NCBI GenBank assembly: GCA_041389925.1
Contig: JAWKQX010000006.1
Span: 343,837 to 407,836, forward strand
From: Kofleriaceae bacterium
GTDB taxonomy: Bacteria; Myxococcota_A; Polyangia; Haliangiales; Haliangiaceae
DNA: 64,000 nt
Direction of reading: 5' to 3'
The first letter of the stretch is position 1. Every line of letters starts with the position of its first letter. Below, piece after piece: positions 8,778 through 59,295 of the stretch. The notes beneath the pieces were generated by a model, which searched no databases, was not told the DNA's origin, and worked only from the letters and a program-made list of their open reading frames with translations. The position numbers and the translations under genes were made by a program.

Positions 8778-9287
8778 CTAGGCTGCTTGCTGCACGGCGT
8801 CGCGGAGCTTTCGCCTGGCGCGAAACGCTCGAATCTTCACATTCGAGACCGAGAGCCCCAGCGCGCGTGCGACTGCTGGCTCGGAGAGACCGCGCTCGAA
8901 CCGCAAACGGAAGACATCACTATAGGCGGGATCGAGCCTGGAAATTTCTTGCTGTAGGCGTCTGTGTTCCTGGGCCCGCTCGAGCAGCTCTTCGGGGGTG
9001 GCGACGTCGCCGCGCGTGAGCGCGTCGTTCTCCGCCGCGCCGAGGTGGAGCACGGAGCGCCGGCGTCTCCGTCGGAGATGCGAGAGCCCGACCGACATGG
9101 CGATCTTGAAGAGCCACGTATGGTAGCGAGAGTCTCCTCGGAACCGCTCGCGGTTTCGATAGGCCAAGAGCAGCGCGTCCTGCGCGACGTCGGCGGCGTC
9201 CGCGTCTCCGACGATCCTGCGAGATACCGCGAGCAGGAACTGGCGGTCCGCCGCGGTGAACGTCACGGCGTTCGCTCGTTCGGGCAT
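8778..9287 (-). CDS. ECF (sigma-70 family, RpoE-like) RNA polymerase sigma factor
   Basis: The 169-aa C-terminal part of ORF 8778-9980 starts at MPERANAV. Region 2 reads DAADVAQDALLLAYRNRERFRGDSRYHTWLFKIA. The region 4 HTH reads LSEPAVARALGLSVSNVKIRAFRARRKL. The ORF's upstream 231-aa extension is an artefact overlapping the divergent gene. Confidence 0.75.
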   Translation of the reverse strand: MPERANAVTFTAADRQFLLAVSRRIVGDADAADVAQDALLLAYRNRERFRGDSRYHTWLFKIAMSVGLSHLRRRRRRSVLHLGAAENDALTRGDVATPEELLERAQEHRRLQQEISRLDPAYSDVFRLRFERGLSEPAVARALGLSVSNVKIRAFRARRKLRDAVQQAA

Positions 9288-9449
9288 GGGCCAGGTAGTG
9301 CACGCGCGATGCCAGCGAGTGGGGCGCAACAAGCCCTCGAAAACGGCGCAGGAGTGTCGCCGGAGCGTCCAGAAGTTGTCGGGGCGCCCGGCAACGGGTG
9401 ACGACCTGTCGGACGTCCATACACTCGCACCGCGTGGTAGGGTGGCGCC

Positions 9450-9800
9450 ATGGCGGACAAGACGCTGTACTGGAAGAGCACCTGAACGAGCTGCCGTGAC
9501 GCGAGGAGTTCCTTGCGCAGCCTCGGAGTGGAGTTCGAAGACGTCAACTACGCCAAGCAGCGGCTGACGCCGGAGCAGGTGCTCGCGGTCGTACGCGCGG
9601 CGGGCTCGGTCGCCGCGGTGCTCAACGTCCGGCACGCGATCGCCAAGGAGCGTGGCTGGGCGGCCGCGCCACCGCCGGCCGAGGAGTTCGCCGCCGCCGT
9701 CGTGCAGGAGCCCAACCTGCTGCGCCGGCCGATCCTGCTCGTCGGGGGGCAGGCGATCGTCGGCCTCAACCGCACCGCGTACGGCAAGCTCGTCGGGTGA
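9450..9800 (+). CDS. Spx/ArsC-family (thioredoxin-fold, arsenate-reductase-like) protein with an in-frame TGA at the first Cys of the CxxC motif; candidate selenoprotein (UxxC) or a pseudogene
   Basis: ATG at 9450 reads MADKTLYWKST-TGA-TSCRDARSSLRSLGVEFEDVNY..., in frame with ORF 9513-9800. This aligns to the Spx/ArsC N-terminus (...SPSCTSCRKARAWL...). The TGA at 9483-9485 sits exactly where the CxxC Cys would be. An imperfect 13-bp hairpin with an AGUU apical loop spans +6 to +42 after the UGA. Confidence 0.5.
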
Positions 9801-9906: not shown

Positions 9907-10464
9907 ATGTTCGTGACCGACGCATTGGCGCGCCTGCTGCCGAAGATGCCGGGGCTGCCCACATTGGACGGAGAGCGCAACCTGGTTCGGGACGCCTGGA
10001 ACCTGTTGCAGCTCGTCCCCGGTGGCAGATCGCTATTCTCACGACTGCTGGGTCGGCTCGCGCCCTACACCGGCTCGATCCACCCGGCGGTGATCGAGCT
10101 GAGCACGGGGCGCGCGGTGGTCGCGATGCCGGATCGCGCGAAGCTCCGCAACCACCTCCAGTGCCTCCACGCCGCGGCGCTGGGCAACCTCGCGGAGCTG
10201 GCGGGGAGCATCGCGCTCGCGTACTCGCTCCCCGATGACGCGCGCTTCATCGTGGCGGGGCTCGAGGTGGAGTACCTCAAGAAGGCGCGCGGGACGATCC
10301 TCGCGACCGGCGAGTGCCAGGCGCCGCGCAGCAACGCGCAGGCGACGTGTGACGTGCACGTCACGTTGCGCGACGCGAGCGGCGAGCTCGTCGCGCGGGC
10401 CGTGGTCCGCAACGTCGTGGGTCCAAAGCCGGGGCTCGAGCGCGAGCCGCTGGATCTCAACTAG
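9907..10464 (+). CDS. DUF4442-type hot-dog-fold (thioesterase-like) protein
   Basis: 185 aa. Same strand and 107 bp downstream of the Spx/ArsC-like gene. The sequence pattern is typical of DUF4442/PaaI-like proteins (assignment from memory). Confidence 0.45.
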   Translation: MFVTDALARLLPKMPGLPTLDGERNLVRDAWNLLQLVPGGRSLFSRLLGRLAPYTGSIHPAVIELSTGRAVVAMPDRAKLRNHLQCLHAAALGNLAELAGSIALAYSLPDDARFIVAGLEVEYLKKARGTILATGECQAPRSNAQATCDVHVTLRDASGELVARAVVRNVVGPKPGLEREPLDLN

Positions 10465-16031: not shown

Positions 16032-16927
16032 CGCCGCGGCGCCGGGAGGGAGCCGCTCGCCTCCACGCGCAGCGTCGGCTTGCGCTCGGCGGCGCGCCTC
16101 GCGCCCGTGCGCGTCGCGGGGCTGCTGCGGGCGAGCCAGCGGAGCGCGCGGTCGAAGTCGGCGAAGCGGTCGGCCTTGCTCTTGCCACCGAGCACCGCGA
16201 CCACGACCTCGCGGCCGTGGAGGTGCGCGCCGGACACGAAGCAGTAGCCCGCGGCGCGCGTGTACCCGGTCTTGCCGCCGGTGACCTGGTGGGTCTTGTC
16301 GAGCAGCGGCACGTTGGTGGTGCGGTAGCGCAGCTTCGCGAACTTGCTCTTCGACATGACCTCGACCTCCTCGGCCCCGAAGATCGCGCGGAGCTCGTCG
16401 TCCTCCAGCGCGGCCCGCAGCGCGAGCGCCAGCTCGCGCGCGGTCGACACGTTGCCGCGCAGGCCGGACGGATCGGTGAAGCGCGTCTTGTTCAGGTGAA
16501 GATCCTTCGCGACCGCGTTCATCTCCTCGACGAGCCCGGCGGCATCGAGCCCCACCGCGCGACCCAGCGCGCTCGGGGCCCGGTTGTCGGACGCCATCAG
16601 CATGGCCCGCAAGAGGTCGCGGTTGCGAAAGGTCTGCCCGCGATCTAGCCGGGTGCGCGCGCCGCCCTTGGCGAGCTCGACGTCGTCCTGGGTGATCTGC
16701 GTCCAGCCGTCGAGGTCGATCCCCTTGCGGCGCACCGCGAGCGCCACGAAGATCTTGGTCGTGGAGGCGATGGGGCGCACCTCATCGGCCGCCTTGCCCA
16801 GCAGCTCGACGCCGGTCGGCGCGTCGATCACGATGATATTCCGAGATGTTAGGTCTGCAGGAGCGGTGGCTCCAGCGGCCAGGGCGACGGACGGCAGCAG
16901 CGCTACGAGCCACGCGAGCGGCGCCAT
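16028..16927 (-). CDS. D-alanyl-D-alanine carboxypeptidase (PBP5/6-type serine peptidase S11)
   Basis: Signal MAPLAWLVALLPSVALAAG. Motifs SxxK (STTKIF), SxN (SDN) and KTG (KTGYT). The ATGA overlap with the tldD-like start points to a three-gene operon. Confidence 0.7.
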   Translation of the reverse strand: MAPLAWLVALLPSVALAAGATAPADLTSRNIIVIDAPTGVELLGKAADEVRPIASTTKIFVALAVRRKGIDLDGWTQITQDDVELAKGGARTRLDRGQTFRNRDLLRAMLMASDNRAPSALGRAVGLDAAGLVEEMNAVAKDLHLNKTRFTDPSGLRGNVSTARELALALRAALEDDELRAIFGAEEVEVMSKSKFAKLRYRTTNVPLLDKTHQVTGGKTGYTRAAGYCFVSGAHLHGREVVVAVLGGKSKADRFADFDRALRWLARSSPATRTGARRAAERKPTLRVEASGSLPAPRR

Positions 16928-17096
16928 GCGCCACGCGAGCCAGCGGTTCGAGGAGGTCACCGATGGAGAATCGCAGATCGCGGGCGGGGTCGCCAATCCG
17001 GCGGAGCGGGGGCGGCCAAGTGAGCAAAGACGTTGCGATTGTGCCCTGGCGAGGGCGCGGGGCGTGCTGCTATGCTGCCTCCTCGCGGAGGACCTC

Positions 17097-18716
<1,620 letters not shown>

Positions 18717-37843: not shown

Positions 37844-40738
37844 ATGACGTGCTTTGGCCGAGGCGCCGAGCTGCGCCGCCTCCTCGGCCTGGCCGACGAT
37901 GACCCGGTGGCGGTCTTGGTCGGGCTCCCGGGCATCGGCAAGAGCGAGCTCGCGTATCGCGTCGAGGCCGAGCTGCTGGCCGCGGCGCCGCGACCGGTCG
38001 TGCACGTCAACGTCGCCCCGGGGCAAGCGCAGACGCTGTACCGCCAGCTCCTGGCGAAGATCGACGCGACGCTCGATGAGCCGTCACGCGGCGCGGCCTC
38101 GTCGGAGCTGGCGCTCGACGCGCTGGTCGAGCGGCTGGTCCGCTCGCCGCACCTCGTCCTGCTCGATGACGCGCACCACGCCCCGCTCGAGGCCGCCGCG
38201 CTGATCGATCGCTTGATGCGCCGCATCTCCGTCGCGGCCCGGCTCATCGTCGCGTCGCGCTCGATGTTGCCCATCGAGACGACGCCGATCGTGGTGCGGG
38301 TGGAGCCGCTGCCGCCCGACGCGGGCCACGCGATGGTGGAGCACTTCTCCGCGCGGCTCGGCGTGCAGGTGGAGGACGTGGGCGCGGTGGTCGCGCGCGG
38401 CGGCGGCAGCCCGCTCTTGCTGCGCCATCTCATCGCGGGCTCCTCGCCGGGCGAGCGCTCGCGCGATCCGCTGCACGCCACGATCACCGCGCTCGACGCA
38501 CCGGCCCAGCGCGCGCTGACCCAGCTCGCGGCGGTCGCTTCGTGCTCGCAGTCTCGTCCCGCGGCGGCGCGCCTGGTGTCGACCGAGCTCATCTTGCAGA
38601 CCCTCCACGAGCAGTGCCTGATCGACTTCGGTCCGGAGCGCGTCGTCGTGCACGATCTGGTGCGCGACGCGGTCCTCGCCAAGGCGGACCCCGAGCTGGT
38701 CCTCTCGAGCCGCGTGCACGCCGCGCGCCTCTTGTGGAACGAGTACCGCGCCGGCTGTGATCCGCGGGTCGCCATCGAGGCCATCTGCCTCGCGGCGTCG
38801 GTCGGCGATCTGGAGTCCGCGATGTCGCAGCTCCAGTCGGCGAGCCGCGCGATCACCGACGCCGGGCTCGATCATCTCATCCTGCCGAAGCTGGAGAAGC
38901 TGGCCGCGCGGGGCTCGCTCGACGCGTGCTTGCTGGCGGCGCGGATCTATGTTCGCGTCGCGCGGGTCCGGGACGCCGCGCGGATGCTCGATCACATCCT
39001 CCCGGCGGACCGCCTCAGCTACCAGGCGCTGATCGCGCGCGCCGCGCTGGCCGAGCGGCGCGGCGAGCTGACGGAGGCGACGCGCGGCTTCGCGCGCGCG
39101 TTGGACTCGGTCCCCGCCGGTCAGGCCCGGACGTGGCTGCGGCTGCGCCTGGTCACCGCGCACGCGCTGGCGGGGCGCTGCGACGAGGCCGCCGGCGCGC
39201 TGGCGGAGCTCGAGCCGGTCATCTTCGCCGCGCCCGATGACCCGGAGTCGCGACGGGACCTCGCCCGGTACTGGTGGTCGCATACGCTGGTCACCATGGC
39301 GCGCTACGAGTGGGAGCTCGCGCTCGCGTCGATCGATCACGGGATGCGCGCGGCGAGCAACGCCGGGGATCGCGAGCTCGGGTTCCGGTTTCGCCTCGCC
39401 GGGCTGCTCGCCGCGAGCGAGCTCGGCGCGACCCAGCAAGCGCGCACGTGGGCCGACGAGGTCGCGCGCGCGCGCGGCGGCGAGCCGGCCCACGAGCGGT
39501 TGAGCAACCTGTTCCTGGGGGTCGCGCATCTCGCCGAGGGTGCCGTCGATGAGATCGTGGCGCACCTGCGCCATGCCTACGACCTCCACGCGGCCGACCA
39601 CGACGTCCTGCTCTCCACCGTCGCCGCGTATCACCTGGCGCGCGCGATGCTGGTCGGCGGCTCGGCGGCGGCGGCGTGTGAGGTGCTCCGCGGCGTCGTG
39701 GACGTCGTCGTCGGTCAGGGCCTGGGAGCGCTCGTCGGTCCGGCCAAGGCGCTCTACGGCCGCGCGCTGGTCGCGGCGGGGCGCCTCGACGAGGCCCACG
39801 TCCTCGCCGCGGAGCTGGTCCGGTACGCGCACGCGCGGATGGTGGGCGAGGGCCAGGCCCTGCACGCGCACATCGCCGCGATGAGCGGAGACCTCTCCAC
39901 CGCGCGACGTCACCTGGCGTTGGCGTTGGAGGCGGTCGGCGATCGCGTCGCGGCGCGGGCGAGCCTGGTGATGGACCAGGCCCTCCTGGAGCTGTTCGGT
40001 GGCGATCCGGAGCGCGCCCGCGCGGCGGCGCTCGCGGCGCGCGACGCGAGCGCGTCTCGAGCTCATCCGCGCCTCCGCGGCAGCGTCCTCTATGTCCTGG
40101 CGGTGGCCGATCTCGCCGCGGGGCTCACCGACACCGCGCTCGAGGCGCTGGGCGAAGCCGAGGCCATCGCGGCCGAGTACGCGCTCGGGCAGCTCACGGA
40201 GTCCATCAAGCTCCTGCGCAACGCGACCGCCCTGGGAGACTCGATCTTCGATCGGGTGCCCCAGACCCACCGGCAGGGATATCTCGGCCTGCTCCGCGTC
40301 CTGGGCCTTCGATCCGGTACGCTGCTCGTGCTGAGCCGGCGGGGGCGGATCCACACCGGCGCGGCGCAGCTCGCGCAGGCGGCGCAGCACTTCGACATCG
40401 TCGTAGATCGCGTGGTCAACTCGCTCCGCGGTCCGAGCTCGACGGTCGAGGGGCGCGCCACCGCGGTGGCGATCTTGGTGGGGCTCGCCGAGAGCGAGGA
40501 GCCGGTCAGTCCGGAGCGGCTCTACCAGATCGTCTGGGGGGCTGGTGAGTATCACCCTATCCGACATAGAAATACTCTATATATTGCGCTCAATCGGACT
40601 CGAAAGGCCTTGAAAGACATTGGAGAGTCCCGCGAGGTGATCCTGCGCGGCAGCGACGGGTGGTACCTCTCGCCGGAGATCGACCTCGCGGTCGTCTATC
40701 GAGATCCGCGGGTCTCCACCGTTGCAGTGCCCATGTAA
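37844..40738 (+). CDS. STAND-type P-loop NTPase fused to helical/TPR-like region and a C-terminal OmpR/PhoB-type winged-helix DNA-binding domain
   Basis: Walker A VLVGLPGIGKSE and Walker B HLVLLDDAHH. Then ~600 aa of Ala/Leu-rich helical repeats. C-terminus LYQIVWGAGEYHPIRHRNTLYIALNRTRKALKDIGESREVILRGSDGWYLSPE resembles trans_reg_C. Confidence 0.6.
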   Translation: MTCFGRGAELRRLLGLADDDPVAVLVGLPGIGKSELAYRVEAELLAAAPRPVVHVNVAPGQAQTLYRQLLAKIDATLDEPSRGAASSELALDALVERLVRSPHLVLLDDAHHAPLEAAALIDRLMRRISVAARLIVASRSMLPIETTPIVVRVEPLPPDAGHAMVEHFSARLGVQVEDVGAVVARGGGSPLLLRHLIAGSSPGERSRDPLHATITALDAPAQRALTQLAAVASCSQSRPAAARLVSTELILQTLHEQCLIDFGPERVVVHDLVRDAVLAKADPELVLSSRVHAARLLWNEYRAGCDPRVAIEAICLAASVGDLESAMSQLQSASRAITDAGLDHLILPKLEKLAARGSLDACLLAARIYVRVARVRDAARMLDHILPADRLSYQALIARAALAERRGELTEATRGFARALDSVPAGQARTWLRLRLVTAHALAGRCDEAAGALAELEPVIFAAPDDPESRRDLARYWWSHTLVTMARYEWELALASIDHGMRAASNAGDRELGFRFRLAGLLAASELGATQQARTWADEVARARGGEPAHERLSNLFLGVAHLAEGAVDEIVAHLRHAYDLHAADHDVLLSTVAAYHLARAMLVGGSAAAACEVLRGVVDVVVGQGLGALVGPAKALYGRALVAAGRLDEAHVLAAELVRYAHARMVGEGQALHAHIAAMSGDLSTARRHLALALEAVGDRVAARASLVMDQALLELFGGDPERARAAALAARDASASRAHPRLRGSVLYVLAVADLAAGLTDTALEALGEAEAIAAEYALGQLTESIKLLRNATALGDSIFDRVPQTHRQGYLGLLRVLGLRSGTLLVLSRRGRIHTGAAQLAQAAQHFDIVVDRVVNSLRGPSSTVEGRATAVAILVGLAESEEPVSPERLYQIVWGAGEYHPIRHRNTLYIALNRTRKALKDIGESREVILRGSDGWYLSPEIDLAVVYRDPRVSTVAVPM

Positions 40739-40807
40739 AGACGAAGTATAGGTGTCGTTGCTGGTGGGTTGTTCCGGCCTGAGAAGAATGGTTCTCGGGA
40801 ACCGGAC

Positions 40808-43243
40808 ATGGAAGCTGGCACGACCATCGGCCGTTACGAAGTCCTCCGACTGCTGGCCGCAGGAGGGATGGGGGAGATCTACCTGGTGCGGCAGCACTCG
40901 ACGGTGCCGGGCTTCGCGTCCCTCGCCGTGATCAAGCTGCTGATCAACTCGCTGAGCATCAACCCCGCCTTCGTGCAGATGTTCCTGGAGGAGGCGCGGA
41001 TCGCCAGCCGCCTTCAGCACAAGAACATCGTACAGGTGCGCGACGTGGCTCAGCACGGCGGTCAGTACTACATGGTCATGGAGTACATCCCCGGGCACAA
41101 CCTGCGCGAGCTGCTCGGAGACACCTCCATCCTCGATCGCCCGCTGTTCTCGCCACGGCTCGGCGCGGAGCTGTTCGCGGACATCGCCAGCGCCCTCGGC
41201 GCCGCGCACGCGCAGCACCTCGTGCACCGCGACATCTCCCCGAACAACCTGATGATCAGCGATGAGGGCGTGCCCAAGCTGATCGATTTCGGCGTGGCGC
41301 GCGCGCAGAGCACGACGTCGTTGACCAAGCCGGGGACGCTCAAGGGCAAGTTCTCGTACATGGCGCCGGAGTACGTGCGCAGCGAGGCGTACGACCACCG
41401 CGTGGATCTGTTCTCGCTCGGCGTGGTGATGTGGGAGACGTTCACGCGTCGTCGGTTGTTTCGCGGGCCGAGCGCGGCCGAGCAGATCCACCAGATCCTC
41501 GAGGCGCCGATCCCGGCGCTCGACAAGGTGGTGCCGGACTTTCCACACGACCTCTCGACGATCGTGGCGGCCGCGCTCGAGCGAGATCCGCAGCGCCGGA
41601 TCTCCTCCGCGATGCTCCTCGCCGATAGCCTCGCCGAGATCGCGCGCGCGCTCCCGGTGGGGCGCGATCCGACGCTGCGCAAGTGGCTGGAGCGTCGCAT
41701 CCCCGATCGCTTGCGGGAGCGCGCCCAGACGGATCAGCTGCTGGCGACGCTGCCGCACGGCGCGCCGATCCCAGATTTCGGGACCGCGTTCCCCAACGCC
41801 GGCAGCGTGCCCAGCAGCTACGGCAACGCGCTCCATCACGACGCTCATGAGGAGGAGACGGGGCCACGTGAGGCCGTGGCGGCCGCGCCTCGCCGATCGA
41901 GCTCGCCGTCGTCGCTCCCGCCGGGGAGCGGGCTGGCGCCGGGGATGGGGCGCACGCCCGGGAGCACGCTCGCGCCGCGGATCGCGCCCGCGCCGGCCCT
42001 GGGGCCCGCGCCGAGCCACGCTCCGCTCACGGGGCCCGCGCCGGGGCAGGGGCCGTCGCCCGCGCCGGCGCCCGCGCCGCCGGCGCCCAGCGGCCGCGCG
42101 CGGTCGTTGCCCATCGTGCTGGGGTTCCTCGGCGGCATCCTGGCGATCGTGGTCGGGCTGCTGGTGCTGCGCGGCTCCTCGACGGACAAGGGGCCCTCGG
42201 TCGCGGCCGGCGCGGCTGAGGGCTCGCTCGCCGACGCGCATCGCCAGCTCGGCCTGCGCGCCATGGCCGGCGGTGATCTGGAGCAGGCGCGGCGGGAGTT
42301 CGCCGAGGCCGTGCGGCTGGGCGCGGGGGGAGACGTGACGCGGCTGCTCGAGCTGACGACGACCCAGGCCAAGCTGGCGGGGACCCCCGACGCGGCCGCC
42401 GCGGAGCCCGCGCCGGCCGAGGCCCGCGCGGCCGCGGCGGTCGCCGAGCCGGCGGCTCCGGACGAGGTCGTCGCGTCGGCGCCGAGCAGCGTCGCGCCGC
42501 CGGGCTCGGGGGGCTCGGACGGCTTGGACGGCTCGGACGGCTCGGAGGACGACGACGCGGCCGCGCCGCCGTCGCGCCCGTCGTCGCGCAGCGTGCGCTC
42601 GACGCCGACCCGCACCCGAGTCGCGCGCCAGCCGGACGTGAGCGTGAGCGTCGAGCCGGATGTCGCGCCGGCGCCCGTACCGGCGCCGGCGCCGGCGCCG
42701 CCCGCGATGGCGACGGTGACGGTCACGTCGGCGGTCCCCGACGCACAGGTGTTCGTCGATCAGCAGCTCGTCGGCACGGCGCCGCGCAAGCTCGAGCTGA
42801 CCCCGGAGGTCGAGCACGTGGTGGTCGTGAAGACGCGCGGCGGAGAGACGCTGCTCACGCGCCCCGTCCGGCTCGCGGCGGGCGCCACCACCTCCTTCCG
42901 CGTGGTGGCCAGGCCGGCGGCGGCGCCGCCGGCCGCCGCGCCGGCGGTGCCCGCGGTCAAGCCAGCGCGGACGCCGCGCGTCACCTCCGACGGCTCGGTC
43001 GACGCCGGCGCGCGGGTCGTGGCGGCGTGCAACGCGTGCCACGCGCGGACCGGCGCGGCGTCGTTCGGCGGTCGCCGCTATACGCGCGCGCAATGGGAGC
43101 GCTTCTTCGCGGGCGGTCTCCACGATCGATACGTCGGCATCGGCGACCAGATGGGCGCGGGAGAGCTGAGCGCGGCCCGCGCGTTCCTCCGCGCCAACGC
43201 GGCCGACAGCGCGGAACACCAAGGCGCGGGGATCCAGGAGTAG
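40808..43243 (+). CDS. Ser/Thr protein kinase with TM, Pro-rich linker, periplasmic PEGA domain and C-terminal mono-heme c-type (CXXCH) domain
   Basis: Kinase motifs GGMGEIYLV...VIK, HRDISPNN and DFG. TM is LPIVLGFLGGILAIVVGLLVL. PEGA-like segment VTVTSAVPDAQVFVDQQLVGTAPRKLELTPEVEHVVVVK. C-terminus VVAACNACHARTG.... Confidence 0.75.
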   Translation: MEAGTTIGRYEVLRLLAAGGMGEIYLVRQHSTVPGFASLAVIKLLINSLSINPAFVQMFLEEARIASRLQHKNIVQVRDVAQHGGQYYMVMEYIPGHNLRELLGDTSILDRPLFSPRLGAELFADIASALGAAHAQHLVHRDISPNNLMISDEGVPKLIDFGVARAQSTTSLTKPGTLKGKFSYMAPEYVRSEAYDHRVDLFSLGVVMWETFTRRRLFRGPSAAEQIHQILEAPIPALDKVVPDFPHDLSTIVAAALERDPQRRISSAMLLADSLAEIARALPVGRDPTLRKWLERRIPDRLRERAQTDQLLATLPHGAPIPDFGTAFPNAGSVPSSYGNALHHDAHEEETGPREAVAAAPRRSSSPSSLPPGSGLAPGMGRTPGSTLAPRIAPAPALGPAPSHAPLTGPAPGQGPSPAPAPAPPAPSGRARSLPIVLGFLGGILAIVVGLLVLRGSSTDKGPSVAAGAAEGSLADAHRQLGLRAMAGGDLEQARREFAEAVRLGAGGDVTRLLELTTTQAKLAGTPDAAAAEPAPAEARAAAAVAEPAAPDEVVASAPSSVAPPGSGGSDGLDGSDGSEDDDAAAPPSRPSSRSVRSTPTRTRVARQPDVSVSVEPDVAPAPVPAPAPAPPAMATVTVTSAVPDAQVFVDQQLVGTAPRKLELTPEVEHVVVVKTRGGETLLTRPVRLAAGATTSFRVVARPAAAPPAAAPAVPAVKPARTPRVTSDGSVDAGARVVAACNACHARTGAASFGGRRYTRAQWERFFAGGLHDRYVGIGDQMGAGELSAARAFLRANAADSAEHQGAGIQE

Positions 43244-45929: not shown

Positions 45930-45968
45930 GTCCCACCGAGTGACGTGAACCTCTAGCTCGCCGGTCGT

Positions 45969-45993
45969 GGGGCGTCCGCGCGGCGGACGCCCC
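45969..45993 (+). terminator. Perfect 11-bp stem hairpin GGGGCGTCCGC-GCG-GCGGACGCCCC (intrinsic terminator/attenuator candidate)
   Basis: The inverted repeat is visible 40 bp after the stop at 45929. The T-tract after it is weak (ctatttccctct). Confidence 0.5.
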
Positions 45994-46043
45994 ACGGTTG
46001 GCCCCTATTTCCCTCTGGTCCCTGGCAAGGCTGCGTGATCTCC

Positions 46044-46670
46044 ATGGCTACCACTGACCCCACCGAAGCATCGGCCCCTCCTCTCCCCTCGACTCTTCCC
46101 CCAACGATGGTCGTGTCCGCGGTCGTCGCCCCGTCGGCGCGCGCGCTCGGCGCGCTGACGCTGGCGCTGGCGGCGGCCTGGCTCGTCGTCATCGGCTACG
46201 CGGCCTACCCCGCGCTGCCGCAGAGCCCGGTGCGCCTCCCGCTGGCGGAGCGTGCGCACAGCTACCTCTGGGCGCCGCAAGGGTGGAGCTTCTTCACGCG
46301 CGACCCGCGCGGAGATCGGCAGTTCGTCTATCACAAGGGCGCCTCGGGCTGGGATCCGGTGCTGTTGGCGCCGCACGGGCGGCTGACCAACCTCGCCGGC
46401 CTGCGCCGTCGCTCGCGCGCGCAGGGCGTGGAGATGGCGCTCCTCCTCGAGAATGTCCCGCCCACCGCATGGCGGACGTGCGACGCCCCGGTGCAGGTTT
46501 GCCTGAGCCAGCCCAGCACGCCGCGCGAGGTCCCCAACGTCTCGCCCGATCCGACGATGTGCGGCGACGTCGCGGTGGTGCTGCAGCGGCCATTGCCGTG
46601 GGCGTGGGCGCGCGCTTCGCGCCCGATCACCATGCCGTCCCGCGTGGTGTCGCTGAGGGTGTCATGCTGA
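46044..46670 (+). CDS. SdpA-family (antimicrobial-peptide system) protein-like
   Basis: N-terminal TM (ALGALTLALAAAWLVVIGYAAY), then SYLWAPQGWSFFTRDPRGDRQFVYHKGASGWDP. This resembles the SdpA family as I recall it (assignment from memory). The stop overlaps the next gene's start. Confidence 0.45.
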   Translation: MATTDPTEASAPPLPSTLPPTMVVSAVVAPSARALGALTLALAAAWLVVIGYAAYPALPQSPVRLPLAERAHSYLWAPQGWSFFTRDPRGDRQFVYHKGASGWDPVLLAPHGRLTNLAGLRRRSRAQGVEMALLLENVPPTAWRTCDAPVQVCLSQPSTPREVPNVSPDPTMCGDVAVVLQRPLPWAWARASRPITMPSRVVSLRVSC

Positions 46671-57200: not shown

Positions 57201-57258
57201 GGCGCGGTCGTGAGCGGGCTGGCGCCGGGCGTCGGGCCGGTGTCATACAATCGAGGCG

Positions 57259-59295
57259 TTGACGGACCGAGGCCATAGCGATGACGCGACGCCCCTCGCG
57301 ACGCCCACGGAGGGCGAGCCGCGCGGCGCGTCGAGGTCGTTCCGCGTCGTGGAGGCGGGCGATCGGCTGGGGCGCTTCGAGCTGCTCGAGGCGATCGGTG
57401 AGGGAGGCATGGCGTCCGTGTTTCGCGCGCGCGATCCGGAGCTGCGGCGCGACGTGGCGATCAAGGTGCTGTTCCCGCACCTGAGCCGTCGCGAGGAGGT
57501 GGTGCGGCGGTTCCAGCGCGAGGCGCGCGCGGCGGCGCGGCTGCACCACCCCGCGATCTTGCAGACCTTCGATGTCGGCGGCGGGGAGGACGGCGAGCCG
57601 CCGCACATCATCATGGAGCTGGTCCGCGGCGCCTCGCTGCACGAGCACCTCGCCGCGCACCCGCCGATGCTCGCCGAGGTCGTCGCGTGCCTCGGGGTGG
57701 TGATCGCCGAGGCGCTGGCGGTCGCACACGACGCGGGGGTGATCCACCGCGACCTCAAGCCGGGCAACCTGCTGGTGTCGCAGGACGGGCGCGTGCTCCT
57801 CGCGGATTTCGGGGTGGCGCACGTGGAGCGCGATGAGTCGCTGGCGACGCGCACGGGCGCGGTGCTCGGCACGCCCGCGTACATGAGTCCGGAGCAGGCC
57901 TCCGGCGAGGACATCGACGGGCGGAGCGATCTGTACTCGCTGGGCGCCACGCTCTATCACGTCGCCACCGGCGCGCCGCCGTACAGCGGCTCGGCGATGA
58001 AGGTGATGTCGTCGCTCGCCACGCCGGGGGCGCTGGTGCCGCCCGCGCAGCGACGCGCGGCGATCGGTCGCCCTCTATCGGACGCGATCCTGAGGCTGAT
58101 GGCGCACGATCCGGCCGCGCGGCCGGCGACGGCGCGCGAGGCCGCAGAGCTCTTGCGGCCGCTGACCGCGCCGCTCGGGGAGCCGGCGGCGGCGCTGGAG
58201 GCGTACTGCCGCGAGCCGGCGAGCTACGTGGAGGCGGCGACGCCGCGCGTCGTGACCCGCCTCCTCGATGACGCGCGCGCGGCGCAGCGGGCCGGGCGGC
58301 TCGCCGGCGCGCTGGCGCTGGTGGACCGCGCCGCGCAGCTCGCGCCTGAGGACGACGCGGTCGCCACGCTGGTCCGCGACGTCACCGCGCGGCGCGGCCG
58401 CGTCGTCGGGGTGCGTCGCGCGGCCGCGGTCGCGCTCGTCGCGGTCGCCGCGTTTGGCGCCGTCGCGGCGATCGTCCTCGGCGGGCGCGCGCCGGGCGGC
58501 ACGGCGACGCCGAGCGAGGCGGCCTCGGCGGCGGGGGCGGTCGACGCCGCGCTCGGCCTCGTCGACGCCAGCCCGGCCTCGGCGAGCGCCGCGCCCGGCG
58601 ACGCGGCGCCCGCGGACGCCCGCCTCAGCGACGCCGAGCGCGCCGAGGTCGCCGAGCGCGCCGAGGTCGCCGAGCGCGCCGAGCTCCATGACGCCCAGCC
58701 CGCGCGAGCGCGCCCCTCTACGCCGGACGCCGCGCGGCGCCGCCCGCCGCCCGAGGTCGTCGGGGCGCGCCCCGAGGTCGTCGCGGACGCCGCGCCATCC
58801 CCCTCCGCGAGCGCGACCCCGAGCGAGCCCGCGACGTCGCCGCCGGTCGAGCCCGCGGGCGCCGCGGAGCCGCGGCGCGGCGCGGCCATCTTCGCGATGG
58901 ACGCCTGGTGCGAGCTCAGCGTCGACGGCGTCCGCCGGGGCCGCGCCGATCGAACCGCGGCGATCCCGCTCGCCGAAGGGCCGCACGCCGCGGTGTGCAC
59001 GCAAGGCCCGGGGCTCGGCGAGTGGCGCGGTGCGTTCGAGGTTCGCGCGGGCGAGACTCGCGAGGTCCGCGGCGCGCTGCGGCGGCAGGTGCGGGTCACC
59101 GTCTCGGTGTCTGGCACCTCGGTCACCATCGCAGGCAAGACGATCGACAACCGCGCCCAGGTGTCGCTCGACAACGGTCGCCACCGCGTCACGATCCTGC
59201 GCGGGGCGAAGGACATCGGCGGCGGCTGGGTCTCGATTCCGCGGGTGGCGAGCTGCACGCTCCGCGACCAGCCGGTGCTGGACTGCTATCCATGA
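57259..59295 (+). CDS. Ser/Thr protein kinase with TM segment and C-terminal extracytoplasmic beta-rich domain
   Basis: Motifs GEGGMASVF...AIK, HRDLKPGN and DFG. TM is AAVALVAVAAFGAVAAIVL. Contains an (AERAEV)n repeat. Start uncertain (TTG 57259 or downstream GTG). Confidence 0.7.
   Translation: MTDRGHSDDATPLATPTEGEPRGASRSFRVVEAGDRLGRFELLEAIGEGGMASVFRARDPELRRDVAIKVLFPHLSRREEVVRRFQREARAAARLHHPAILQTFDVGGGEDGEPPHIIMELVRGASLHEHLAAHPPMLAEVVACLGVVIAEALAVAHDAGVIHRDLKPGNLLVSQDGRVLLADFGVAHVERDESLATRTGAVLGTPAYMSPEQASGEDIDGRSDLYSLGATLYHVATGAPPYSGSAMKVMSSLATPGALVPPAQRRAAIGRPLSDAILRLMAHDPAARPATAREAAELLRPLTAPLGEPAAALEAYCREPASYVEAATPRVVTRLLDDARAAQRAGRLAGALALVDRAAQLAPEDDAVATLVRDVTARRGRVVGVRRAAAVALVAVAAFGAVAAIVLGGRAPGGTATPSEAASAAGAVDAALGLVDASPASASAAPGDAAPADARLSDAERAEVAERAEVAERAELHDAQPARARPSTPDAARRRPPPEVVGARPEVVADAAPSPSASATPSEPATSPPVEPAGAAEPRRGAAIFAMDAWCELSVDGVRRGRADRTAAIPLAEGPHAAVCTQGPGLGEWRGAFEVRAGETREVRGALRRQVRVTVSVSGTSVTIAGKTIDNRAQVSLDNGRHRVTILRGAKDIGGGWVSIPRVASCTLRDQPVLDCYP

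Follow-up and report, generated by a model that had tools for sequence, protein, structure and literature searches.

The gene at positions 9450 to 9800 of a 64-kb stretch of contig JAWKQX010000006.1 from a Kofleriaceae bacterium, a soil myxobacterium (the whole analysed stretch of 64,000 nucleotides is called the window below) is, as judged from its sequence and that of its relatives, very probably a functional selenoprotein gene in which the UGA at 9483 is read as selenocysteine (Sec); we put the probability of this reading at about 0.88. We favour it because TGA alternates with cysteine codons at the aligned position in related genes, because the reading frame upstream of the TGA is conserved, and because a covarying hairpin stands at a fixed distance downstream of it with a GU in its loop that is confined to the Sec forms. 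Thus, as is expected of a bacterial selenoprotein, the UGA is in frame and aligned to Cys in homologues, with coding conservation on both of its sides. The features on which the argument depends are the following:

9450..9800, + strand: whole coding region of the predicted selenoprotein (116 codons, Sec12 among them; stop TGA at 9798-9800; motif U12-T-S-C15)
9450..9452, + strand: ATG start codon; no other start lies between the TGA and the in-frame TAG at 9438-9440
9483..9485, + strand: in-frame UGA, the predicted Sec codon (Sec12), aligned with the N-terminal Cys of CxxC (Spx Cys10)
9492..9494, + strand: TGC codon for Cys15, the partner cysteine of UxxC, invariant in Sec sequences
9500..9517, + strand: core of the predicted bacterial selenocysteine insertion sequence (SECIS), a 7-bp stem (9500-9506/9511-9517) with the loop AGUU at 9507-9510
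9513..9800, + strand: open reading frame (ORF) as publicly annotated, with a TTG start and 95 aa, lacking strand beta1 and the UxxC; an annotation artefact

A preliminary description of this DNA had proposed that the frame opens at ATG 9450 and runs through an in-frame TGA, and both the coordinates and the translation were confirmed on reading the sequence. The frame reads MADKTLYWKST-TGA-TSCRDARSSLRSLGVEFEDVNY and has no further stop until the TGA at its end; upstream, the in-frame TAG lies four codons 5' of the ATG. Neither a promoter pattern of the sigma-70 type nor one of an intrinsic terminator was seen in the surroundings of the gene.

TGA and cysteine at the aligned codon

A protein search returned 242 relatives, and DNA was then retrieved for 80 genome loci and 80 metagenome loci. 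A first, motif-based reading of the aligned codon found 124 loci with TGA, 15 with TGC, and three with TGT; the 19 loci that this search had missed or left unscored added 15 TGA and three Cys codons, with one locus (L138) ending before the codon. In total, 139 TGA stand against 21 TGC or TGT in 160 loci, no other codon occurs at the position, and no scattered stops or frameshifts were seen among these loci. The alignment of orthologues, a check that the preliminary description had put forward, thus supports its proposal that Sec stands where a CxxC has its N-terminal Cys. Sec outnumbers Cys about seven to one in the sampled loci of this clade, unlike in most Sec/Cys families. Carriers of the TGA are metagenome-assembled genomes (MAGs) and metagenome contigs of Kofleriaceae, Haliangiales, Polyangiaceae, Nannocystaceae, Blastocatellia/Acidobacteriota, and Planctomycetota, and four independent assemblies of the window organism (L161-L164; SRR28338157-60) all have the TGA in an identical sequence.

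Full-length relatives (112-126 aa) read YWKSTCTSCRDAR at the corresponding place, and therefore the TGA falls exactly on the first Cys of the CxxC, giving the U-T-S-C motif that had been proposed for the gene. The equivalent of Cys15 is invariant in all 111 distinct Sec sequences (TGC in 69, TGT in 42). Two loci lack the second cysteine: L068, binned as Alphaproteobacteria, reads U-T-T-A, and L061 reads C-T-T-A; by their motifs, these would be single-Sec or single-Cys forms and, as such, would resemble the ArsC type more than the Spx type. A further observation concerns labels. Locus L054 is filed as “Bifidobacterium breve” and L076 as a “Heliomicrobium sp.” MAG, although the gene in both is of the high-G+C Myxococcota/Acidobacteriota type, and L076 and the metagenome contig L139 are identical over the 48 nt from the TGA onward; the two taxonomic labels are probably binning errors.

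The codons before the TGA behave as protein-coding codons. Lys at position -3 from the TGA is found in all 111 distinct Sec-type sequences (AAG in 89, AAA in 22), and Thr at -1 is found in 109 of the 111, with three codons used about equally (ACT 32, ACC 33, ACG 44). Variability in this stretch peaks at third codon positions. Of the 119 loci with 90 nt or more of upstream sequence, 92 have as their nearest in-frame start an ATG eight to 11 codons before the TGA. Such conservation of amino acids, together with free synonymous change, argues that the codons before the TGA are under selection at the level of the protein. From this pattern, the stretches upstream and downstream of the TGA are predicted to be one continuous coding sequence, rather than a leader and a separate gene.

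Neighbour-joining on 142 members gives a tree in which the root state is inferred to be Sec and the Cys forms turn up at dispersed places, which takes at least 11 switches. The window gene clusters with two Sec loci (L001 and L002) and one Cys locus (L010). The last of these is the closest Cys relative, in which a degraded hairpin is kept and the GU of the loop is lost (AGC UUU); it resembles the “remnant SECIS” described in recently converted Cys forms (PMC1794560). Peat and bog metagenomes contain a distant sister group (L144-L160; “KMYLKPT-U-TSCRKARGLLLE...DLGK”; 35-40% identical) that is also mostly Sec, with the TGA at the same codon in L144, L148-L151, L155, L156, and L158-L160, and Cys forms in L152 and L154. 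It too scores far below the cut-off of NF041106, the curated model of ArsC-family (seleno)proteins, and one member (L156) just passes TIGR01617 (76.9 bits). At 50% identity, the clade itself comprises only about 22 representative clusters at E <= 1e-10, many of them again about 93-98 aa long.

The hairpin downstream of the UGA

RNA folding predicts a hairpin whose stem begins 14 nt 3' of the UGA: 9500-9506 (CGCGAGG) pairs with 9511-9517 (CCUUGCG), and the loop AGUU contains G9508 and U9509. The preliminary description had drawn an imperfect hairpin of 13 bp around the same loop. Its 7-bp core and its loop proved to be conserved, but its outer helices are only 39-66% paired across relatives, and the extended version was for this reason set aside in favour of the core.

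Covariation was assessed on 53 distinct variants in a gap-free alignment that starts at the TGA (alignment A2). The 7-bp helix is paired in 89% of cells, with compensatory changes in four of its seven pairs, and its covariation score (0.287, versus 0.171 in shuffles) was reached by 0 of 500 shuffles; registers obtained by sliding the stem gave only 20-74% pairing. The covariation is clearest between the Nannocystaceae form, GUACGA-GGUC-UCGUAC, and the Kofleriaceae form, GCGAGG-AGUU-CCUUGC. Acidobacteriota stems use a register shifted by one base, with a one-base bulge, which explains most of the “broken” cells at pair 22-31. The core at 9500-9517 of the window is identical to that of most Kofleriaceae-type Sec sequences.

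The loop lies at a constant place; for 85 of the 98 distinct Sec sequences it reads AGUU, GGUC, GUU, or GUC, and its G26 is at least 90% conserved. A GU at positions 26 and 27 is present in 88 of the 98 Sec sequences and in none of 17 Cys sequences (Fisher p ~1e-13, uncorrected for phylogeny). The hairpin has also left its mark on synonymous sites. Serine at +8 is encoded by AGT in 91 of 92 sequences, as against four of 134 for the serine codons outside the hairpin (at -2 and +2); likewise inside it, AGG accounts for 88 of 111 arginine codons at +7, and TTG for 77 of 98 leucine codons at +10. The codons AGT, AGG, and TTG are rare in high-G+C genomes, and the predicted hairpin thus forces rare codons at these sites. 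Sec forms read “ARSSLR” here and Cys forms drift to “ARSALR” or “ARKALR”, because in the Sec forms the codons would be frozen inside the hairpin.

A G that is conserved within the apical loop is a recognised mark of bacterial SECIS elements (PMC1794560), and a covarying 7-bp stem, a conserved loop G, and a Sec-specific GU, the properties by which such elements are judged (PMC1794560, PMC9312934), were all found. An Rfam scan of the window matched no family, and the hairpin is thus without Rfam coverage.

Readings of the UGA

Sec insertion, SelB binding, and the redox chemistry of the product are what we infer from these patterns. A ribosome would start at ATG 9450 and reach the UGA after 11 codons; the mRNA hairpin at 9500-9517 would work as a bacterial SECIS, its AGUU loop exposing G and U, and would recruit SelB with Sec-tRNA(Sec), so that Sec would be inserted and translation would continue to the stop at 9798. 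The product would be a thioredoxin-like protein of 116 residues with U12-T-S-C15 placed between strand beta1 and the N-terminus of helix alpha1. By analogy with other thioredoxin-fold UxxC selenoproteins, it most likely would cycle between a selenol/thiol and a selenenylsulfide, in the role of a thiol-disulfide oxidoreductase or of a redox switch.

Several points weigh against reading the UGA as Sec. The counts of aligned codons, hairpins, and synonymous codons are taken from related sequences with common ancestry, and the p-values attached to them are indicative only. Folding, which the preliminary description had put forward as a check, does form the hairpin, but its energy in the window (-22.4 kcal/mol) is not distinguished from that of shuffled sequence (z = -0.91), 35 of 200 shuffles folding equally well or better, and the energies of Sec and Cys forms are close (-12.1 versus -10.4 kcal/mol; p = 0.16). 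Folding energy was dropped as a test of the hairpin, being uninformative in DNA of 72% G+C, the value for the window; covariation, loop identity, and codon usage were used instead. Further, given the register shift in Acidobacteriota, a single consensus structure understates and somewhat blurs the pairing. A 2022 review lists “Arsenate reductase-like protein, COG1393, UxxC” as predicted and not experimentally verified (PMC9312934). Lastly, none of selA, selB, selD, and tRNA-Sec was found in the 64-kb window or in ~1.3 Mb of relatives' loci, although linkage of these genes to a selenoprotein gene is not required. This search covered 64 kb of the 544-kb contig plus the relatives' loci: ARAGORN found no tRNA-Sec in the window or in any of the retrieved loci, tblastn with E. 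coli SelD (an approximate query) had no match, and Pfam annotation of 29 window ORFs gave no sel genes. Apart from these points, a scan of the window for other in-frame-TGA candidates returned many spurious frames of high G+C at third codon positions (GC3) and none with a UxxC or CxxU context, and nothing relevant was found in the literature on selenocysteine in Haliangium, Haliangiales, Kofleriaceae, or Myxococcota.

The public annotation implies a different reading, in which UGA 9483 ends a leader peptide of 11 codons, while the actual protein begins at TTG 9513 and has 95 aa. The NCBI pipeline called exactly that ORF (MEZ4363400.1), dozens of relatives have been treated likewise, and in-frame TTG or ATG codons do occur near 9513. 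However, a product of 95 aa would be without strand beta1, the first part of helix alpha1 (residues 13-21), and the entire active-site motif, all of which the fold needs; the supposed leader is the conserved N-terminus of full-length Cys homologues in the same frame; and the TGA exchanges only with Cys codons, which makes this reading very unlikely. Gene callers need a dedicated model to call Sec, and the model that exists for this purpose, NF041106, misses the clade.

It has also been suggested, in the preliminary description, that the TGA might be a recent nonsense mutation; a pseudogene could equally arise by loss of the Sec machinery and subsequent decay of the gene. Selenoprotein loss is common in bacterial evolution (PMC1794560), and Sec machinery was not seen in the window. 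A recent origin is contradicted by the TGA itself, which appears to be ancestral, being found in 139 of 160 related loci, the nearest relatives L001 and L002 included, behind a conserved upstream frame. Decay is likewise at odds with the window copy, which has neither a frameshift nor a second stop, and in which the start, Cys15, and the hairpin core are intact. Its GC3 of 0.93 is typical of the coding genes of the window, and its sequence is the same in all four assemblies of the organism. We therefore consider it very improbable that the gene is a pseudogene.

A third possibility is that the UGA is read as a standard amino acid (Cys, Trp, or Arg), whether through a suppressor or near-cognate tRNA or because the genetic code is altered. 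The identity of the inserted residue does rest on inference, and Cys can enter at Sec codons under selenium limitation. Against this, TGA is the main ordinary stop in the window (19 of 32 genes), and it ends this very gene; the genetic code is therefore not reassigned, and any recoding must be local. Recoding affects the position of the catalytic Cys, where Cys codons are the sole alternative seen, which is the hallmark of Sec/Cys exchange, and the conserved hairpin with G and U in its loop, at the distance of a SECIS, is specific to the TGA forms; on these grounds, a standard amino acid is a highly improbable choice. Finally, although TGA is a single base away from TGC or TGT, a sequencing or assembly error is effectively refuted by the agreement of the window with four assemblies from different runs (SRR28338157-60) and by more than 100 other contigs from unrelated projects that read TGA.

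Family, setting, and relation to known systems

For scoring against family models, Cys was written for the UGA residue in the 116-aa product. It matches Pfam ArsC (PF03960) over residues 7-113 with 39.2 bits (gathering cut-off 24), a domain present in all listed homologues except P0082, and a profile of the family finds Spx as the best among solved structures (E ~3e-14), with YffB and R773 ArsC weaker; the family had been named as Spx/ArsC in the preliminary description, and these matches bear it out. The TGA residue aligns with Cys10 in the C10-T-S-C13 motif of Spx, and an invariant Gly aligns with Spx Gly52. More specific models fall short of their cut-offs: 41.3 bits versus 123 for NF002459 (Spx), 41.4 versus 75.05 for TIGR01617 (Spx/MgsR), 35.4 versus 106 for TIGR00014 (arsC), and 33.3 versus 85 for NF041106 (“ArsC family (seleno)protein”, ArsC_rel_Se_1), which gave 27-46 bits on seven other members of the clade and its sister group and no hit at E 1e-5 on P0082. 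Scores below the NF041106 cut-off place the clade in a different subfamily, and this explains why the NCBI pipeline shortens its genes. In terms of sequence, the gene product is thus best described as a predicted UxxC protein of the ArsC/Spx superfamily, distinct from Spx, from the glutaredoxin-coupled arsenate reductases, and from the members of NF041106. The clade has invariant positions of its own: Y34, N59, H62, K66, W70, P75, N89, and R92-R93-P94.

The predicted structure of P0002, a Cys homologue 70% identical to the window protein, agrees with this placement. Its AlphaFold model (predicted local distance difference test score, pLDDT, 94.8) has strand beta1 at residues 4-8, C12, and helix alpha1 at 13-24, with the active-site residue between the strand and the helix. 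Its best match in the PDB is Spx 1Z3E (template modelling [TM] score 0.85, root-mean-square deviation 2.2 A), and YffB and ArsC are also among the best. At the level of the model, a thioredoxin-like ArsC/Spx fold with the active-site residue at the start of helix alpha1 is confirmed.

The neighbouring genes are as the preliminary description had given them, and are listed here as context only:

8778..9287, - strand: divergent extracytoplasmic function (ECF) sigma factor, with Sigma70_r2 and r4_2 domains (TIGR02937, 82.9 bits)
9907..10464, + strand: downstream DUF4442 hot-dog-fold protein (PF14539, 120 bits)

An intergenic gap of 162 bp separates the sigma factor from the gene that starts at ATG 9450. 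From these neighbours, the preliminary description had suggested an oxidative or thiol-stress module, an idea that conservation does not support. Among about 100 loci with enough flank, the ECF sigma factor is common only to L001, L002, and L010, and DUF4442 adjoins the gene only in L001, L010, and L021; in other words, this neighbourhood does not extend beyond the closest relatives. When flanking ORFs were clustered de novo, only clade-specific neighbours emerged (unrelated proteins in the case of Acidobacteriota), and no partner was universal. Such a module may still exist in this lineage alone. In loci of Nannocystaceae type (L051, L053, L056-L058, L060, L062, L064, L130, and L132-L134), a divergent sigma-54-dependent response regulator of the NtrC type lies directly upstream (about 1.5 kb) on the opposite strand, and this clade-specific neighbour differs from the ECF sigma factor of the window.

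Elsewhere in the window, an 854-aa vault-protein-like ORF (30744-33305, - strand) carries MVP_shoulder (PF11978, 84.8 bits) and Vault_3 (PF17795, 37.3 bits), domains of the eukaryote-type major vault protein, here in a Kofleriaceae MAG. The gene at 45957-46667 (+ strand) encodes an SdpA homologue (sporulation-delaying protein A; PF17418, 146.8 bits); the family is familiar from the cannibalism operon of Bacillus and is here present in a myxobacterium. Three Ser/Thr protein kinases (16500-18713, 40739-43240, and 57214-59292, all + strand) and a STAND/AAA NTPase of 1059 aa (37559-40735, + strand) are typical of myxobacterial genomes.

The gene calls of the clade in public databases are systematically shortened at the UGA. 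The shortened ORF of the window is in GenBank as MEZ4363400.1 (P0001), “MAG: ArsC/Spx/MgsR family protein [Kofleriaceae bacterium]”. Among the 120 best database hits, about 70 are similarly short, at 93-100 aa with ~80% coverage, and begin where the 95-aa ORF of the window begins, just past the hairpin. UxxC ArsC-like selenoproteins have already been predicted since 2006-2008, and the mechanism is standard bacterial Sec recoding, with no new principle involved. What is modestly new is a clade that lies outside the curated model, that is shortened across public databases, and that is dominated by Sec in Myxococcota and Acidobacteriota. No curated model covers this clade, and its mis-annotation is systematic; its carriers among Kofleriaceae, Nannocystaceae, Blastocatellia, and Planctomycetota add to the picture of selenium use. 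Further, the variants of the hairpin are a naturally covarying set of SECIS elements that could seed a covariance model for selenoproteins in these phyla.

The closest known relative is Spx of Bacillus subtilis and other Firmicutes, a regulator that binds the C-terminal domain of the RNA polymerase alpha subunit and in which the CxxC is a redox switch. The two share the register of the motif (C10-T-S-C13 and U12-T-S-C15), Spx is the best match in both sequence and structure, and the Gly at Spx Gly52 and an LLRRP motif are conserved. However, the clade is only 26-29% identical to Spx and fails all Spx models; the window protein is without the C-terminal tail of about 15 residues (116 aa versus 131 aa); the clade occurs in Gram-negative phyla; and its invariant N-x-R-H, K66, G-W, and P-P are absent from Spx. 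Since Spx is closest in sequence and structure and the Gly at Spx Gly52 is invariant, the protein could be a Sec-containing equivalent of Spx: a regulator that senses redox state and binds to RNA polymerase in the Gram-negative Myxococcota and Acidobacteriota. If so, it would be the first selenoprotein transcription regulator, and a selenenylsulfide switch would tune the transcriptional response to oxidants, in Kofleriaceae perhaps together with the divergent ECF sigma factor. We consider this unlikely, given the failed Spx models, the absent tail, and the lack of a conserved regulatory neighbour.

Arsenate reductases are the other obvious comparison. The glutaredoxin-coupled R773 ArsC of E. 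coli and YffB-type proteins have the same fold, with Sec12 aligned to the catalytic Cys12 of ArsC, and YffB (1RW1) and other “putative arsenate reductases” have TM scores of 0.75-0.81 to the P0002 model. R773 ArsC differs in its use of a single Cys rather than a CxxC, and the window protein stays below the TIGR00014 cut-off. No genes of an ars operon (arsR, arsB/acr3) were found among the window genes or the recurrent neighbours in relatives. The curated ArsC-family clade of NF041106 also includes selenoproteins, and the window protein aligns with the model from one end to the other, its residues 6-111 corresponding to positions 4-107.

As for the recoding element, the prototype is the SECIS of E. 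coli fdhF. In both, a stem-loop lies in the coding sequence just past the UGA and its apical loop presents a G and a U, and the GGUC loop of the Nannocystaceae is the same as that of fdhF. The Kofleriaceae form is without the conserved bulged U, and the GU here is 3 nt farther from the UGA than G23/U24 of fdhF. Spacing and stem length here are within the bSECISearch consensus, which allows a UGA-to-loop distance of 16-37 nt and loops of 3-14 nt and asks for a G among the first two positions of the loop.

Selenoproteins of this kind were predicted in Desulfotalea and Desulfuromonas in 2006 (PMC1794560), and the Global Ocean Sampling (GOS) metagenome added “Arsenate reductase 1, UxxS” and “Arsenate reductase 2, cd03032, UxxC” (PMC2398784). 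The clade described here has in common with the published ArsC-like UxxC selenoproteins its membership of PF03960/COG1393 and a Sec that is the first residue of the UxxC (PMC1794560, PMC2398784, PMC9312934), and the evidence is of the same type: an in-frame UGA, Cys homologues, and a downstream stem-loop. Compared by description, the published examples come from marine metagenomes and anaerobic Deltaproteobacteria, whereas this clade belongs to Kofleriaceae and other Myxococcota, Blastocatellia, and Planctomycetota; and, unlike the GOS “ArsC 2” family, in which 42 Sec stand against 238 Cys forms (PMC2398784), it consists mostly of Sec forms (139 versus 21).

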